From IMG/VR virus record IMGVR_UViG_2690316152_000009: 21,027 bases of DNA. One strand, written 5' to 3'. Shown one piece after another: positions 1 through 8,822 of this stretch (positions are counted from its first letter, which is position 1; the number at the start of each line of letters is the position of its first letter). The notes under the pieces are model-generated. The model did no database searches, was not told the DNA's origin, and worked only from the letters and a program-made list of their open reading frames with translations. Origin of the DNA: a virus (Duplodnaviria > Heunggongvirae > Uroviricota > Caudoviricetes). Both the position numbers and the translations under genes were made by a program.

Positions 1-1002
1 TTACCCTCTATTGTCAAAAGGGTTCAATTCAACAGCAGCCTCTAAATGACCTGGAGCAAAATGCGCATAACGCATAGTCATTTTTATATCGCTATGCCCC
101 AGTATTTTTTGCAACACAAGAATATTTCCGCCCCGCATCATAAAATGACTGGCAAACGTGTGACGTAGCACATGAGTTAATTGCCCATCAGGAAGCTCGA
201 TCTTCGCTCTCTTAATTGCAGCGTCAAAAGCCTCATAACATGGTGAAAATAGCGCTCCTCGTTTTTTAGGAAGCATAGCCTGCAATTGAGGTGAAATCGG
301 TACAGTGCGGTTCTTCTTTCCTTTAGTTTTAACAAATGTGATTCGACCGGGCAGTACTTGAGATTGCTTTAATCCTTCTGCTTCACTCCACCGAGCACCC
401 GTCGCAAGCCCAATACGGACAACAACCCCCAAATCTTTATTCCGTGACTCATCACACGCAATCAGAAGGCGTTCAATCTCATCTACATACAGAAACGCCA
501 GTTCCTTTTCTTCCTCACGAAACTTGCGAATACCAGTCAGGGGGTTTTCACCAGACCACTCCCCAAGGCGCTTCAGTTCGGCAAAAACAGCATGTAGATA
601 TGACTGCTCGCGATTAACGGTTGCTTCACTAAGTTTTTTCTTCCCCTTGGGATTCCATTCTCCTGATAGCCTTCTTTCCCGATAAGTAGCAAACATATTT
701 TTGTCAAACTGAGAAGCAAATGGATCTCCCAGCCTGGAACAAATCGCCTCAAGTTTGACTTTGCGCTCTGCACCAGAGGACAAGGTTTTACCGTACATCT
801 CAAACCAACGAGCAATCAACTCAGAAAGACGAGGACCAGAACCATCTTGAAACTCGTCTCCAACTCTACTATTCATTAAACGGCGCTCATAAGAGAGCGC
901 CTCACTTTTTGTCGCAAACTGTTTACGAATGCGTTTTCCCGATGCCCCGTAGGGATAACATTCGCAAAGCCATTTACCTGATGGAATCTTACGAACCGAC
1001 AT
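1..1002 (-). CDS. int: P2-type tyrosine integrase
   Basis: 333-aa ORF; tyrosine-recombinase C-terminal motifs (HVLRHTFASHFMM, LGHSDIKMTMRYAHFAP) and P2 Int-like N-terminus (GKRIRKQF, FVKTKGKKNRTVPIS) recognised from memory of P2 Int; position at prophage end matches the P2 map. Confidence 0.9.
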   Translation of the reverse strand: MSVRKIPSGKWLCECYPYGASGKRIRKQFATKSEALSYERRLMNSRVGDEFQDGSGPRLSELIARWFEMYGKTLSSGAERKVKLEAICSRLGDPFASQFDKNMFATYRERRLSGEWNPKGKKKLSEATVNREQSYLHAVFAELKRLGEWSGENPLTGIRKFREEEKELAFLYVDEIERLLIACDESRNKDLGVVVRIGLATGARWSEAEGLKQSQVLPGRITFVKTKGKKNRTVPISPQLQAMLPKKRGALFSPCYEAFDAAIKRAKIELPDGQLTHVLRHTFASHFMMRGGNILVLQKILGHSDIKMTMRYAHFAPGHLEAAVELNPFDNRG

Positions 1003-1007
1003 TTTAG

Positions 1008-1355
1008 TTACTTATCACATAAATCAAATGCAGCCTTAGTGACATCCCCCAGACTCTTTTTTAACCCTGGGGCGGCATCATTATCTAGCCAAAATGGATT
1101 ATTGTTATCTAACGGTAACGCACCAAATGTTTTACCTTTTATTCGAGCCAAACCTGTAAGTGCATATAACTTATTATCGTCAAAATTCATCACATAAGGA
1201 TTACCATCAAGACACTGTAATTGAACCTCATCAGTATTAAATGGCCATACCCCATTGAAACTCTCACGTTCAATAGTTTTAAAAGGCATTGCGACGGCGG
1301 AAAAAGAAAACATAGATAAAAAAGTAACTAATAGTTGAACCTTTTTTACTTTCAT
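1008..1355 (-). CDS. Secreted (periplasmic) protein of unknown function, cargo between C-like repressor and int
   Basis: 115-aa ORF; N-terminal Sec-type signal peptide (MKVKKVQLLVTFLSMFSFSAVA, AxA cleavage site); two Cys in mature part; GAGG SD before ATG; no Cys lipobox. Confidence 0.6.
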   Translation of the reverse strand: MKVKKVQLLVTFLSMFSFSAVAMPFKTIERESFNGVWPFNTDEVQLQCLDGNPYVMNFDDNKLYALTGLARIKGKTFGALPLDNNNPFWLDNDAAPGLKKSLGDVTKAAFDLCDK

Positions 1356-1384: not shown

Positions 1385-2035
1385 TTACAAATTAAAAAAT
1401 GCCCTAGAAATGACACCACCTACCAAAACCCCTACGCAGATAAAGAATATTATTTCTTTTGGATAAAGTCGGATTAATTCTGAAGCACGAAGTCGGACTT
1501 CTGGTAAGGTCGAACTCTCTGTGTGGCTTGATGCCGATTGTTGCTCTAACCACGACAATGCAGACTGTAACTGAGAACGAGTAAGATCGTTTAAACGTCC
1601 TGTACCGAAATTGATATGGCAATACCGCAGAAGTTTTTGTCGAAGTCCACAGTCTTCACTGTTACGTAGTAATAAACTTACAAGAGCCTTACAGGCATCA
1701 TGATCTTTACATCGCTCAAGCATTGCATGCAGAAAACTCTCCGCTGTTTTATATTGATTTACTGTCATATCATCAATACCAGTTACACCAATCTCCGCAT
1801 GTACTTTTTGCCAAATAATAAACGCTTCAGTATTGCTAGCTTCTGCAATAGCAGCAACCAAGCTATTTAGCTCCTTACGCTGAGCCTTAAGCAAAGGGCG
1901 ATCGTCATCATCATTATTCGAAGGGATTGCGATATTGACGGTCTGAGAACCATCATATCGCTCTATCTGAATATTCTTTTCGTGAAAATCACGCCCAGCA
2001 ACGCGATTGTTTGAACCGTTTGAGTTGACGGCCAT
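1385..2035 (-). CDS. C-terminally membrane-anchored (tail-anchored) protein of unknown function
   Basis: 216-aa ORF; GGGAGG SD 6 nt upstream; single hydrophobic segment at extreme C-terminus (EIIFFICVGVLVGGVISRAFFNL); N-terminus carries NNRVAGRDFHE motif shared with C-terminus of upstream repressor. Confidence 0.6.
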   Translation of the reverse strand: MAVNSNGSNNRVAGRDFHEKNIQIERYDGSQTVNIAIPSNNDDDDRPLLKAQRKELNSLVAAIAEASNTEAFIIWQKVHAEIGVTGIDDMTVNQYKTAESFLHAMLERCKDHDACKALVSLLLRNSEDCGLRQKLLRYCHINFGTGRLNDLTRSQLQSALSWLEQQSASSHTESSTLPEVRLRASELIRLYPKEIIFFICVGVLVGGVISRAFFNL

Positions 2036-2050
2036 GTCACCTCCCTACTA

Positions 2051-2455
2051 TCACCTACCCTTAGTTTCGTTATAGTCACGACCAGCGATACGGTTATTAC
2101 CACCAGAAATATTTAACTCACGTCCTGATGGCTGAGTTTCCTTTTCACTGATCGCACCTTTTAAAGCCCCAATCACCGCATTTTTCACATCTAACGAAGC
2201 TGCTCGAAAGCGAGTAATCAACTCCTGCTCATCATCGTTATAAGTTTCAGGTGAGTGAATTCCCAACACAACATACTGAACATCAAGGCCAAAACGAGAC
2301 AGCGCTGCCAAATACGCAGCATCAGGAAAGCTATCTCCTTTCTCATATCTAAGCTGAGTTAGCTTTTTGACTCCACCAATGTCGCTCATGGCAACTTGAC
2401 TAAGTCCCAATCTTTCCCTTTCCTCACGCAACCGCTGACCAATATCATTTTTCAT
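2051..2455 (-). CDS. HTH (XRE-family) transcriptional repressor, putative immunity repressor (P2 C / 186 CI positional analogue)
   Basis: 134-aa ORF; N-terminal HTH (LREERERLGLSQVAMSDIGGVKKLTQLRYEKGDSFP); first gene leftward of divergent switch region, as P2 C. Confidence 0.75.
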   Translation of the reverse strand: MKNDIGQRLREERERLGLSQVAMSDIGGVKKLTQLRYEKGDSFPDAAYLAALSRFGLDVQYVVLGIHSPETYNDDEQELITRFRAASLDVKNAVIGALKGAISEKETQPSGRELNISGGNNRIAGRDYNETKGR

Positions 2456-2530
2456 ACAAAAACCTTGACAGGTATCTTTTTTGATACCAAAATGATTTCA
2501 CGAGCTATTAGATGATCACAATATACCACT
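2456..2530. promoter_or_regulatory. Divergent lysis/lysogeny switch region with perfect inverted repeat GGTATC-N6-GATACC (2471-2488) overlapping a candidate rightward promoter (-35 TTGACA 2465-2470, weak -10 CAAAAT 2488-2493)
   Basis: 75-bp intergenic region between divergent repressor gene and early operon; palindrome and -35 hexamer read directly; -10 assignment weak. Confidence 0.4.
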
Positions 2531-2737
2531 ATGAAACAAGTTCTTCACGATACCAGATCACGCATTCCGCGTAACACCGCCACAGGTCCAAGACTGGCAC
2601 TTCGGCTGTCCCTCGAGGAGCGAGCCGTCATTGATGAAATGGCAGCTAAAGAACAACGCTCATCCTCTAACATGGCGCGCATGATCTTCCTTCGCGGCCT
2701 AGAGCTAACCCAGAAAGAACAAAACAAATCTTCCTGA
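2531..2737 (+). CDS. Small putative ribbon-helix-helix DNA-binding protein (first early gene)
   Basis: 68-aa ORF; RLALRLSLEERAVIDEMAAKEQRSSSNMARMIFLRGLE resembles RHH (Arc/CopG/MobC-like) pattern; no obvious SD, start uncertain. Confidence 0.45.
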   Translation: MKQVLHDTRSRIPRNTATGPRLALRLSLEERAVIDEMAAKEQRSSSNMARMIFLRGLELTQKEQNKSS

Positions 2738-2753: not shown

Positions 2754-2957
2754 ATGTCAGGTATAACCATCAATATCAATGTGAATGCCCCCTATGTATC
2801 CCTGCAGAAATATGCAGAGATAACAGGTATCCCTCTTAATACATGCAAAAAGATGTTGGCTGACGGTCGAATTATTATCCGACCCAAACGCGCCAAAATG
2901 GAAAAGCCTGAAGTAAACCTTGTGGCGATGTTAAAAGACGCTTTGGCTAACAGCTAA
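2754..2957 (+). CDS. Cox/Apl/AlpA-like HTH excisionase-regulator
   Basis: 67-aa ORF with GGAGG-like SD (caggaggctagtggg ATG); HTH segment VSLQKYAEITGIPLNTCKKMLADGRI typical of AlpA/Cox/Xis-type proteins; position matches P2 cox / 186 apl. Confidence 0.6.
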   Translation: MSGITININVNAPYVSLQKYAEITGIPLNTCKKMLADGRIIIRPKRAKMEKPEVNLVAMLKDALANS

Positions 2958-7926: not shown

Positions 7927-8328
7927 ATGAAAATTTGTATCGATGACGGCTCCACCAACATCAAGCTGGCATGGACTGAGAACGGCGAACGCCGCAACGC
8001 CATCAGCCCGAACAGCTTCAAGTCGGAATGGTCTGCGCCGTTCGGTGGCACGCAGCCCGCGAACTACATGCTTGATGGCGTGCGCTATGGTTTTGATCCG
8101 GTCAGCGATCGCTTTGTCCAGACAACTGACACGCAATACCAGTACAGCGATGTGAATGTCATTGCCATTCATCACGCGCTGGTCAAATCAGGCATCACGC
8201 CACAGGAGGTGGATGTGGTTGTCACCCTGCCACTGAGCGAGTATTTCGACACAAACGCACAGCCGGACATAGCCAACATCAACCGCAAAAAAAGCCCAGG
8301 ATTCCCGGGGCGGTTCAGAGGAGAGTGA
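7927..8328 (+). pseudogene. ParM/StbA-like actin-family partition ATPase, N-terminal fragment only
   Basis: MKICIDDGSTNIKLAW...ISPNSFK...YSDVNVIAIHHALVKSGI resembles the N-terminal about 125 aa of plasmid ParM/StbA (about 320 aa); reading frame runs into a 22-bp IS terminal repeat and stops. Confidence 0.6.
8296..8317. repeat. Solo 22-bp copy of the IS629-like terminal inverted repeat
   Basis: CCAGGATTCCCGGGGCGGTTCA is identical to 20461-20482 (terminus of the partial IS element); no IS body adjacent. Confidence 0.6.
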
Positions 8329-8330
8329 GA

Positions 8331-8822
8331 ATGCAAATTTCACCGGTTACTCTTCGTGTTGCGAAGGCGTTTATATCCAGACATCACCGACACAATAAAC
8401 CCCCGGTGGGGCATAAATTCAGCATTGGTCTGAGAAATGATGCCGGAGAATTGATAGGTGTGGCGACAGCCGGTAGACCTGTTGCACGACATTTGGACGA
8501 TGGATTAACGCTTGAAGTAAATCGCACATGTACCACAGGAGAACGCAACGCTAACAGCGCACTTTATGGTGCTGTCTGGCGGGCAGCAAAGGCTATGGGT
8601 TATCAACGTTGTATTACGTACACCCAGGCAGATGAATCAGGAGCATCTCTCCGCGCAGCTGGTTTTGTTCGTGTGAAAGAGCTTCCTCCAAGAAAAAGCT
8701 GGGCGGAATCAAGCGTCGCCCTGCGGAGTAAACGCGATCCGGTCGGAAACGGTGGTGTTCCTCGTGTGCTCTGGGAAATCAGGAGAATGAGTACCACTGG
8801 CATTCGCATCAAAGGAGAGTGA
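8331..8822 (+). CDS. Hotspot cargo protein, 163 aa, possibly GNAT-fold (acetyltransferase-like)
   Basis: ATG 8331 preceded by GGAGAG SD; weak by-eye match to GNAT core (segment TTGERNANSALYGAVWRAAKAMGYQRCITYT then LRAAGFVRV); stop TGA lies inside the SD of the next gene. Confidence 0.55.
   Translation: MQISPVTLRVAKAFISRHHRHNKPPVGHKFSIGLRNDAGELIGVATAGRPVARHLDDGLTLEVNRTCTTGERNANSALYGAVWRAAKAMGYQRCITYTQADESGASLRAAGFVRVKELPPRKSWAESSVALRSKRDPVGNGGVPRVLWEIRRMSTTGIRIKGE

Follow-up and report, generated by a model that had tools for sequence, protein, structure and literature searches.

Putative repressor and membrane-protein genes of the prophage immunity region

The window analyzed here, a stretch of 21,027 nt from the IMG/VR virus record IMGVR_UViG_2690316152_000009, represents the left part of a P2-like prophage of Escherichia coli (Peduoviridae, genus Xuanwuvirus). 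This report concerns two adjacent genes on its minus strand, coding for a putative XRE-type repressor with a helix-turn-helix (HTH) domain and for a tail-anchored membrane protein (Table 1). The repressor ends with a short motif, referred to below as the tail, and a similar motif, the head, opens the membrane protein. The region studied is 97.8% identical to that of Escherichia phage 520873, and the arrangement is present in 505–525 of 5,426 complete E. coli genomes (about 10%), nearly always with at least 99% identity. The insertion site of the prophage in E. coli genomes adjoins yecA.

The aligned tail and head blocks share 10 identical residues of 19, together with two conservative pairs (I/V and Y/F). 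The Smith-Waterman score of this alignment is 62, compared to 21.9±4.4 when the head was shuffled 20,000 times with its composition preserved; the highest shuffled score was 48. It is the best local alignment of the two full-length proteins and their only similarity, and no third copy of the motif was found within the window. A low-complexity chance match was rejected, since both the shuffles and Gly/Asn/Gln-rich non-cognate controls score far lower. The same codon is used for only 4 of the 10 identical residues, with a nucleotide identity of 33/57, indicating that the similarity is held at the peptide level; recent DNA duplication or gene conversion was rejected on this basis. Both copies are among the best-conserved parts of their proteins, and the synonymous divergence combined with strong amino acid conservation indicates purifying selection on each of them. 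An earlier note on this DNA had described the motif as a conserved peptide rather than a recent duplication. The alignment score confirms that the motif is real, the span of 1976–2110 given there was essentially correct, and its interpretation agrees with the diverged codons and with the retention of both copies across Enterobacterales.

Table 1. Positions of the genes and features around the repressor/membrane-protein junction, in coordinates of the window
Feature	Position	Strand	Basis
Integrase	1-1002	-	Pfam Int_N, Phage_integrase
Secreted DUF2511 protein	1008-1355	-	Pfam DUF2511; phrog_2950; signal peptide
Tail-anchored membrane protein, 216 aa	1385-2035	-	Open reading frame; phrog_5825, E 6e-103; Flk_N
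C-terminal transmembrane anchor, residues ~184-216	1388-1486	-	Hydropathy 187-216; AlphaFold2 helix 184-214
Flk_N-like helical domain, residues 45-175	1511-1903	-	AlphaFold2 helices 50-174, pLDDT 80-90
Extended conserved head region, residues 22-44, IQIERYDGSQTVNIAIPS...	1904-1972	-	I24, D28, T32, N34, P38 invariant
Head motif VNSNGSNNRVAGRDFHEKN, residues 3-21	1973-2029	-	Alignment to repressor tail
Repressor/membrane-protein gene junction, 15 nt, TAGTAGGGAGGTGAC	2036-2050	-	Two extra in-frame stops and Shine-Dalgarno sequence
Putative XRE-type repressor, 134 aa	2051-2455	-	Open reading frame; HTH hits; PHROG transcriptional regulator/repressor families
Tail motif LNISGGNNRIAGRDYNETK, residues 114-132	2060-2116	-	Alignment to head; followed by basic end GR and three stops
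Helical hairpin, residues 74-106, DEqELi.rFR.A.l.VK.A.l.AL	2138-2236	-	AlphaFold2 helices 74-85 and 88-106; family-conserved
HTH DNA-binding domain, residues 1-64	2264-2455	-	AlphaFold2, five helices, pLDDT ~90
Divergent control region, repressor to Arc-like gene	2456-2530	.	Promoter-like site and inverted repeat
Arc-like early regulator	2531-2737	+	phrog_3431, E 1e-28; phage 520873 annotation
Cox-like early regulator	2754-2957	+	phrog_575, E 1e-27; phage 520873 annotation

The repressor gene is divergent from the genes for the Arc-like and Cox-like regulators, which are followed on the plus strand by a P2-type replication gene, and lies on the side of the integrase gene int, located further downstream on the same strand. 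This is the classic layout of a P2-type immunity region, which places the HTH protein in the repressor position; this position and the HTH fold point to its function as the lysogeny repressor. The presence of an XRE-type HTH domain is supported concordantly by Pfam (HTH_31, HTH_19, and HTH_3 with E-values of 8e-5 to 1e-3, below the gathering score), by a PDB profile search, in which only the HTH was matched (best hit P22 C2, E 9e-7), and by the AlphaFold2 (AF2) model. Alignments of homologs revealed an invariant motif RL.EERER...Q...YE in this domain. The conserved helical hairpin that follows it is a probable dimerisation element. LexA/lambda-cI type self-cleavage was considered and rejected: there is no Peptidase_S24 match, and the 134 residues comprise only the HTH, two helices, and the tail. 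The remaining matches were weak, at the HTH level in PADLOC and to MqsA and HipB-coupled HTH domains in profile searches. The protein ends with LNISGGNNRIAGRDYNE (in longer views, ...RELNISGGNNRIAGRDYNETKGR and ...LNISGGNNRIAGRDYNETKGR), and residues 107–134 have a predicted local distance difference test score (pLDDT) of about 40, below 50, in the AF2 model built with the family alignment.

The N terminus of the membrane protein reads VNSNGSNNRVAGRDFHE (in longer views, MAVNSNGSNNRVAGRDFHEK and MAVNSNGSNNRVAGRDFHEKN). Residues G7, N10, R11, D16, and E19 of the head are invariant in an alignment of 55 homologs, and the consensus among 120 homologs from Escherichia, Klebsiella, Serratia, Erwinia, Kosakonia, and other genera is M.VNS.G..NR.AGRDF.EN.IQI..FDG.HTINIAIPS. 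For repressor homologs of the same range of genera the tail consensus is INVSG.GNRVAGRDYNENKK, which may also be stated as NVSG.G.R.AGRDYNE.KK. Like the repressor tail, residues 1–44 of the membrane protein are modeled with low confidence (pLDDT of about 50 or below, AF2 with the family alignment).

The Flk_N assignment of the membrane-protein body relies on precomputed Pfam annotations of homologs (PF27202). The protein shows a partial match to NCBIfam Flk (NF007987) over residues 35–166 (E 1e-15, 57.9 bits versus the 353-bit cut-off) and 28% identity to E. coli K-12 Flk in BLASTP (E 1e-10). Full-length Flk equivalogs are defined by a length of about 331 aa, a score of at least 353 bits, and the chromosomal pdxB-flk locus, while the protein analyzed here is 216 aa long and prophage-borne. 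E. coli Flk itself has neither the head motif nor a neighboring repressor gene. The product is thus a tail-anchored Flk_N-domain protein with an additional head rather than an ortholog of Flk. No toxin family was recognized in it by Pfam, NCBIfam, or PADLOC, the latter giving no match for the DUF2511 protein either, and profile searches of the two partners revealed no NACHT, NB-ARC, or Bell domains. Foldseek comparison of the model with PDB yielded nothing significant (the best hit, SaPI2 Stl with E 0.6, was not relied on). A weak match to phrog_245, "anti-repressor Ant," was detected. In addition, an Flk_N-like region (..QR..L....IW..H...GV.S..ELT..QY..A...L) was observed C-terminal to the N-domains of Rha/Ant-type anti-repressors (P0346, P0373, and P0376), which hints that Flk_N may be a phage regulatory domain borrowed by the host Flk, or the reverse.

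At the junction of the two genes, the sequence ...AAG GGT AGG TGA TAG TAG GGAGGTGAC ATG contains three in-frame stops in succession and a strong Shine-Dalgarno sequence. A search of positions 900–2800 revealed no terminator-like site, and thus none lies between the repressor gene and int. The lack of a terminator and the short junction carrying a Shine-Dalgarno sequence imply co-transcription in the lysogen, so that the repressor and membrane protein are, as judged from the sequence, almost certainly produced from one lysogen transcript. The gaps between the membrane-protein and DUF2511 genes (29 nt) and between the latter and int (5 nt) are likewise short, and these two genes probably belong to the same operon.

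Recurrence and co-variation of the tail and head motifs

Homology to the repressor was used to gather loci, both from IMG/VR and from genomes sampled at one per species; the frequencies are therefore approximate. The same arrangement was found at no fewer than about 30–33 non-redundant prophage loci of Gamma- and Betaproteobacteria. In each of them an XRE repressor of the same family carries a Gly/Asn/Gln/Val-rich tail, and the next gene downstream opens with a matching head. The two genes are mostly spaced by -4 to +30 nt, a 4-nt ATGA overlap being common, and at least two K/R occur within the last eight residues of 32 of the 33 matched repressors. In the Enterobacterales homologs of both proteins the two motif copies are conserved. 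More distant repressor homologs have different Gly/Asn/Gln-rich tails, each matched by the head of its own downstream gene. Examples of such tail/head pairs are YGNAQIGQASAGDIVN / FGGAQIDQAAAGDINN (locus L020), QVFKGSVSGVAGRDVV / QTFKGPVGDVAGNDVV (L019), QIFNGDISGQFAGNQIINN / QEFNGTAQGQFSSRDIINI (L014), QVFHGAVSGGVAARDIINN / QEFQGNVDGGVAGRDIVNQ (IMG/VR locus L152), TVDYGNAQIGQASAGDIVN / TVSFGGAQIDQAAAGDINN in Jeongeupia, QIFNGDISGQFAGNQIIN / QEFNGTAQGQFSSRDIIN in Pectobacterium, KQVFKGSVSGVAGRDVVK / KQTFKGPVGDVAGNDVVK in a proteobacterial metagenome-assembled genome (MAG), and RIGQQINGPISGGVAGRDFVQ / RMKQEINGDVEGGIAGRDIVR in a Rhodocyclaceae MAG. The motif first noted in the window is therefore real but had been understated in scope, being one class in a broader family of paired tail/head motifs. 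The aligned blocks are 9–34 aa long, typically 15–21 aa, and consist of 16.7% G, 11.1% V, 9.8% N, and 7.7% Q, with little L (1.0%), P (1.6%), and K (3.0%). In the AF2 models of the two proteins of the window, the motif segments show no strands and have pLDDT values below 50.

The specificity of the match was assessed with a rule that is identical for cognate and non-cognate pairs, the best score being taken over all start codons in a fixed window past the repressor stop. For 64 non-redundant loci the score was 35.9 for cognate and 23.2 for non-cognate pairs (permutation z = 15), and a sum as high as the observed one was obtained in none of 20,000 permutations; over the different tests z ranged from 10 to 15. 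With Gly/Asn/Gln-rich tails, the cognate head was ranked first in 12 and among the top three in 20 of 26 cases. Drift from one ancient duplication would not favor cognate pairs, and therefore the tail and head evolve together. The cognate match is either selected or repeatedly re-made. Individual genera harbor several motif classes, each with its own head: two classes in Pectobacterium, three in Gilliamella, and different classes also in Pseudomonas. Such coexistence argues for pairwise recognition rather than for a common host factor.

IMG/VR was also scanned with a degenerate DNA pattern for G..NR.AGRD[FY].E; the counts given here refer to the matches listed. At least 172 occurrences of NR.AGRD[FY] were found, all of them terminal and none internal: 75 tails located no more than 12 residues from the stop codon and 97 heads no more than 25 residues from the start codon. 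On 56 contigs both copies were present, 70–90 nt apart. Of 51 distinct tails, 48 belonged to the repressor family and three were cut by contig ends, and 91 of the 94 heads with an upstream open reading frame (ORF) were directly preceded by an ORF of the repressor family, mostly at a distance of 3–25 nt. The 13-residue motif thus occurs well beyond the locus where it was first noted, and always terminally.

Heads of the NR.AGRD class occur on at least three unrelated bodies, membrane proteins in nearly all cases. Bodies consisting of Flk_N and a transmembrane (TM) segment account for 52 of 76 distinct NR.AGRD-headed proteins among the matches listed. The second type, of about 115–145 aa, contains a CPxC...CNHC zinc ribbon and two TM segments, and the third, of about 140 aa, a helix and two TM segments. 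The extended head region is restricted to the Flk_N-bodied class and is missing from heads with the zinc-ribbon and two-TM bodies. In other motif classes the bodies are small proteins with one or two TM segments, or larger ones in which an Flk_N-like part and a coiled coil are combined with a TM segment and a periplasmic Cys domain, as in BcepMu gp18 and phiE202 gp22. Since nearly all partners are membrane proteins, what stays constant in the system is the repressor, the paired motifs, and the membrane location. The periplasmic C-terminal module following the TM segment of the larger head-bearing proteins, C-x-[FY]-[DAG]-G-[KH]-x-[YF]-x-x-G-[ST]...C, was observed in BcepMu gp18 (L284 2914-3696), phiE202 gp22 (L285 2937-3680), and loci L012, L013, and L020, and has no family match; it suggests that some partners may sense or act in the periplasm.

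The membrane-protein family was also represented by 138 clusters from a set of 1.84 billion proteins. The Flk_N body begins within the first ~60 residues in nearly every cluster, and the few long members carry Rha/Ant-type N-domains or longer heads. An origin of the pair from a split gene was not supported, as neither fused HTH-Flk_N-TM nor "all-in-one" relatives were found among these clusters. Five Flk_N and TM proteins with a longer N terminus (P0280, P0285, P0300, P0306, and P0308) contain a helix DERLAKLAELLKDE followed by another Gly/Asn-rich motif, IKVKGAGNTINVGGTQVNL, which presumably represents one more head class.

The module is always located in the immunity region, in both P2-like and Mu-like prophages. 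P2-like carriers comprise the Enterobacterales prophages and Burkholderia phage phiE202 (gp21/gp22). The Mu-like carriers include transposable prophages of Pseudomonas aeruginosa and Gilliamella and Burkholderia phage BcepMu (gp17/gp18); in Mu-like prophages the repressor is divergent from the Ner-like, transposase, and Mor genes. The sampled hosts are Enterobacterales, Pseudomonas, Aeromonas, Aggregatibacter, Gilliamella, Bordetella, Burkholderia, Jeongeupia, Thiothrix, Cellvibrio, Xanthomonadales, and Rhodocyclaceae. BcepMu and phiE202 were reached via repressor homology; a tblastn search of named phages with the membrane protein revealed only phage 520873, in three pieces, and weak Ralstonia matches.

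Homologs without a tail also have no head-bearing neighbor, as in a chromosomal Pseudomonas group encoded upstream of a response regulator and in phage Mana. A threshold of Gly/Asn/Gln content was tried as a predictor of the head partner and performed poorly, with many discordant cases in spite of a Fisher p of 0.001. In a Janthinobacterium-type lineage (L018 5386-5721, L165 6386-6721, and L166) the repressor retains a Gly/Gln-rich tail, MVFHGKVGQQIHGDITAPQTINVGRKKK, and the next ORF, of 111 aa, overlaps the last 62 nt of the repressor gene in another frame. The product of this ORF consists only of a TM segment and a C.FDGK.Y.VG...C.C domain, with neither head nor Flk_N. Such an arrangement may represent either a decayed partner or a different link between the two proteins.

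Possible pairing of the motifs and alternative explanations

On balance, we consider it somewhat probable that like-with-like pairing of the head with the tail attaches the membrane protein to its own repressor. The docking motif proposed in the earlier note is the idea that best fits the co-variation of tails and heads across distant prophages. According to this reading, the repressor tail and the membrane-protein head would be cognate, short, disordered Gly/Asn/Gln/Val-rich motifs, putatively beta-prone, by which the two products of one operon would recognize each other in a homotypic manner. The free C terminus of a soluble DNA-binding protein would meet the free cytoplasmic N terminus of a membrane protein made from the same mRNA, and the head would act as a portable adaptor, tying varied membrane-embedded bodies each to its own repressor. 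The low pLDDT of both segments in the monomer models is as expected of motifs that fold only when bound.

Two geometries of pairing may be envisaged. One is a discrete antiparallel beta-ribbon, in which the head would imitate a tail–tail contact and the R-D pattern could form cross-strand salt bridges. The other is a stacked in-register cross-beta assembly of the amyloid-signaling type. Both NR.AGRD partners carry the same charges (R and D), which makes parallel in-register stacking awkward and fits an antiparallel ribbon better; the amyloid version of the pairing is uncertain, and a true prion-like templating motif wiring the master repressor to a membrane effector appears doubtful. If it operated, a change in the repressor, such as its release from DNA, its clustering, or its hijack by a satellite or rival phage, would give rise to a self-propagating fold leading to exit of the prophage from lysogeny or to cell death.

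The signaling could proceed in either direction, and we give the two possibilities roughly equal weight. The membrane protein may limit the free repressor via membrane sequestration or an anti-repressor-like action, as favored by the constant membrane anchoring, by the periplasmic domains and zinc ribbons of some partners, and by the occurrence of Flk_N-like regions in Rha/Ant-type anti-repressors. Alternatively, the repressor may restrain a membrane effector that would be freed upon repressor loss or hijack, in the style of toxin-antitoxin and abortive-infection systems. In favor of the latter direction are an operon layout of the antitoxin-first kind, the occurrence of small TM partners, and the combination of a variable effector with a constant sensor typical of defense.

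Apart from the awkward charge pattern, several points weigh against homotypic docking. The low AF2 confidence of the monomers would fit folding upon binding but is no proof of it, and the literature searched yielded no binding, localization, or phenotype data on the pair. Across Enterobacterales the NR.AGRD motif hardly varies among repressors whose HTH domains differ by 35–45%, so that specificity between co-resident prophages of this clade is not evident. A few tail-bearing repressors have no recognizable head partner (L018/L165/L166, L030, and L032).

An alternative, which we regard as unlikely, is competitive mimicry: the tail would dock on a folded part of the repressor itself, for example the helical hairpin, in cis or across the dimer, and the head would compete for this site, so that the two motifs would never touch. 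Such a mechanism accounts for the similarity of the motifs and for their co-variation with each repressor lineage, a conserved hairpin does lie beside the tail, and the like-charged R-D pattern is easier to explain if both segments bind one complementary surface. However, the hairpin APLAVKAAALAALTAG is far more conserved across lineages than the tails, making it hard to see what would drive the diversification of the motifs into classes. Moreover, the AF2 monomer shows no contact between the tail and the core, the tail being left unplaced.

It is still less probable that both motifs are read by a third party, such as a host protease or unfoldase recognizing them as a degron, a chaperone, or a phage factor. 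Low-confidence termini are the usual place for degrons, the matched repressors end in a basic cluster, and C-terminal tails are known to determine how stable some phage repressors are, as with Mu Rep and ClpXP. A shared host factor would, however, keep the motif constant within a host, whereas different classes coexist in Pectobacterium, Gilliamella, and Pseudomonas. Among the IMG/VR matches listed the motif occupies just these two positions and is present in no other phage or host protein, and the window contains no further copy. The cleavage motif suggested in the earlier note belongs to this group of explanations and was not supported, as the repressor has no peptidase domain and no link to a protease was found.

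That the similarity is a functionless relic of a partial duplication, or of the fission of an ancestral HTH-linker-TM gene as the same note had also suggested, is very improbable. The motifs do flank the gene junction, where a scar of such an event is expected, but the purifying selection on both copies and the closer similarity of cognate than of non-cognate pairs across deep lineages largely refute this explanation. The attachment of the same head to unrelated bodies and the lack of an N-terminal HTH in any of the 138 clusters point to a portable module, not a fission scar. Finally, nothing more than the adjacency of the two ORFs speaks for a single gene split by a sequencing or assembly frameshift, or for a spurious low-complexity match, and this artefact is refuted by the three in-frame stops, the membrane-protein gene's own Shine-Dalgarno sequence and ATG, the identical layout in more than 500 independent complete genomes, the two-gene order kept in dozens of genera, and the far lower scores of matched shuffles and Gly/Asn/Gln-rich non-cognate controls.

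Related systems and other features of the prophage

Paired terminal motifs across adjacent genes are already known from amyloid signaling. Both the fungal motifs and the bacterial amyloid signaling sequences (BASS) were found by a match between the C terminus of an upstream and the N terminus of a downstream product of collinear genes with tiny gaps or overlaps, and the bacterial ones are rich in G/N/Q/V/I and poor in K/P/L (Dyrka et al., bioRxiv 10.1101/2020.01.06.895854). The BASS11 motif of the E. coli prophage system Bab/Agp is used in abortive infection (Ibarlosa et al., bioRxiv 10.1101/2024.11.07.622273), which makes this system an E. coli prophage precedent for paired terminal motifs. 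The pairs described here resemble those of fungal NWD2/HET-S, BASS1-10, and Bab/Agp in the composition bias of the blocks and in the location of a short motif (about 17–25 aa) at the C and N termini encoded by adjacent collinear genes with tiny gaps. They also share the portability of the motif across partner domains and the membrane action of one partner, and some heads (L017, L046, and L060) contain two to three pseudo-repeats like the HET-s and BASS1/6 effectors.

The differences are substantial. In amyloid systems the upstream partner is a Bell/HeLo cell-death domain, whereas here it is an XRE DNA-binding repressor; the downstream NLR/STAND or TPR-GreAB-PIN sensor is replaced by a membrane protein with Flk_N and TM, zinc-ribbon and TM, or small TM architecture. 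The polarity is reversed relative to BASS, the N-terminal copy being on the membrane protein. The hosts are unicellular Proteobacteria, and the R-D pattern of the main class does not obviously favor an in-register stack. Lacking the NLR/TPR sensor and the Bell/HeLo effector, and with reversed polarity, the pair is not a BASS member as defined; at most, by analogy, it may work like BASS systems.

A layout similar to that of the pair is characteristic of membrane-anchored anti-sigma factors, in which an inner-membrane, cytoplasm-facing protein is paired with a soluble transcription regulator, and many of these have a zinc ribbon before the TM segment or a periplasmic domain after it, as do some bodies here. 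Flk, the tail-anchored flagellar regulator, has an N-terminal domain homologous to the body of the membrane protein in the window. However, anti-sigma factors target a sigma factor by a folded sigma-binding domain, in contrast to the phage repressor and the duplicated short motif that appears to serve for recognition here, and no components of regulated proteolysis were seen at the locus.

Type II toxin-antitoxin systems with an XRE-HTH antitoxin (HigA, MqsA, and HipB) likewise have a small HTH gene first, encoding a disordered C-terminal tail, and a second gene with a 4-nt overlap or a short gap, and are located on mobile elements. In the antitoxins this tail binds the partner. In the window, however, the HTH protein occupies the position of the immunity repressor, and the second protein belongs to no toxin family or PADLOC model. 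Antitoxin and toxin normally share no sequence motif.

Phage anti-repressors, such as P22 Ant, 186 Tum, P4 epsilon acting on P2 C, CTXphi RstC, and VP882 Qtip, are small proteins that inactivate a repressor by binding, and RstC and Qtip drive the repressor into aggregates or foci. Those described so far are soluble proteins, as a rule controlled separately by LexA or quorum signals rather than transcribed together with their target repressor, and none is known to copy the tail of the repressor itself. In lambda, the exclusion genes rexA/rexB are co-transcribed with the repressor gene, and the membrane protein RexB is expressed from the repressor operon in the lysogen, similar to the arrangement described here; rexA/rexB have no sequence relation to the genes of the pair, and the Rex proteins share no motif with cI.

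The literature searched, on amyloids, Flk and tail-anchored proteins, and Mu-like repressors, contained no description of a repressor/membrane-protein pairing, and the BASS papers (Dyrka et al.; Ibarlosa et al.) make no mention of HTH proteins or repressors. Within this literature, a prophage master repressor and a membrane protein appear to be undescribed as paired-motif partners, and it is this combination of partners that appears to be new.

The pair suggests a link between the master switch of the phage and the cell membrane, and bears on exit from lysogeny outside the lambda/LexA paradigm and on the control of prophage membrane proteins; P2 itself is classically non-inducible. It spans two unrelated phage lineages, P2-like and Mu-like, in Gamma- and Betaproteobacteria, including the isolated phages BcepMu and phiE202, and with about 18 residues per side offers an easily mutated handle on the connection between repressor and membrane. 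Should cross-beta templating prove true, amyloid signaling would extend from NLR-type immune sensors to transcription factors, and would become part of the lysis-lysogeny switch in P2-like and Mu-like phages, where one of the signaling partners would be a transcription factor. A discrete beta-ribbon would instead represent a compact new way to specific protein pairs and a possible source of orthogonal docking tags.

The divergent control region upstream of the repressor gene contains a promoter-like site TTGACA-17-CAAAAT at positions 2465–2493 of the plus strand, with a perfect inverted repeat GGTATC-N6-GATACC (2471–2488) inside its spacer. From its sequence and location, this repeat is a candidate repressor operator overlying the early promoter. 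A 12-nt direct repeat ATACCA..ATGA was also observed in this region, at 2484 and 2523. Control by LexA was considered and rejected, since the lone CTGT-N8-ACAG site lies within the replication gene and is at chance level. In the RefSeq annotation of E. coli 55989, a 45-aa hypothetical protein is placed on the minus strand at approximately 2545–2682 (L001 7546-7683), opposite the 68-aa Arc-like ORF, which matches phrog_3431 and is annotated as Arc-like in phage 520873; the RefSeq call is probably on the wrong strand.

The secreted DUF2511 protein, whose gene separates int from that of the membrane protein, probably represents a lysogenic-conversion "moron." Compared with the prophage of E. coli 55989, the window matches at 99.4% as far as position 8292 and diverges beyond it. 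A ParM-like gene is shortened here to its N-terminal StbA_N part (7927–8328) and is followed by a weak Mom-like ORF (8325–8822, below the Pfam cut-off) and several ORFs without family assignment up to the portal gene. The segment 7927–10884 has the appearance of variable cargo within the P2-like prophage. In the record of phage 520873 (L002 2459-3065), the membrane-protein gene is unannotated and matched by tblastn in three pieces, and the integrase is in two parts; these broken genes reflect either frameshift errors in the record or a decaying prophage copy.

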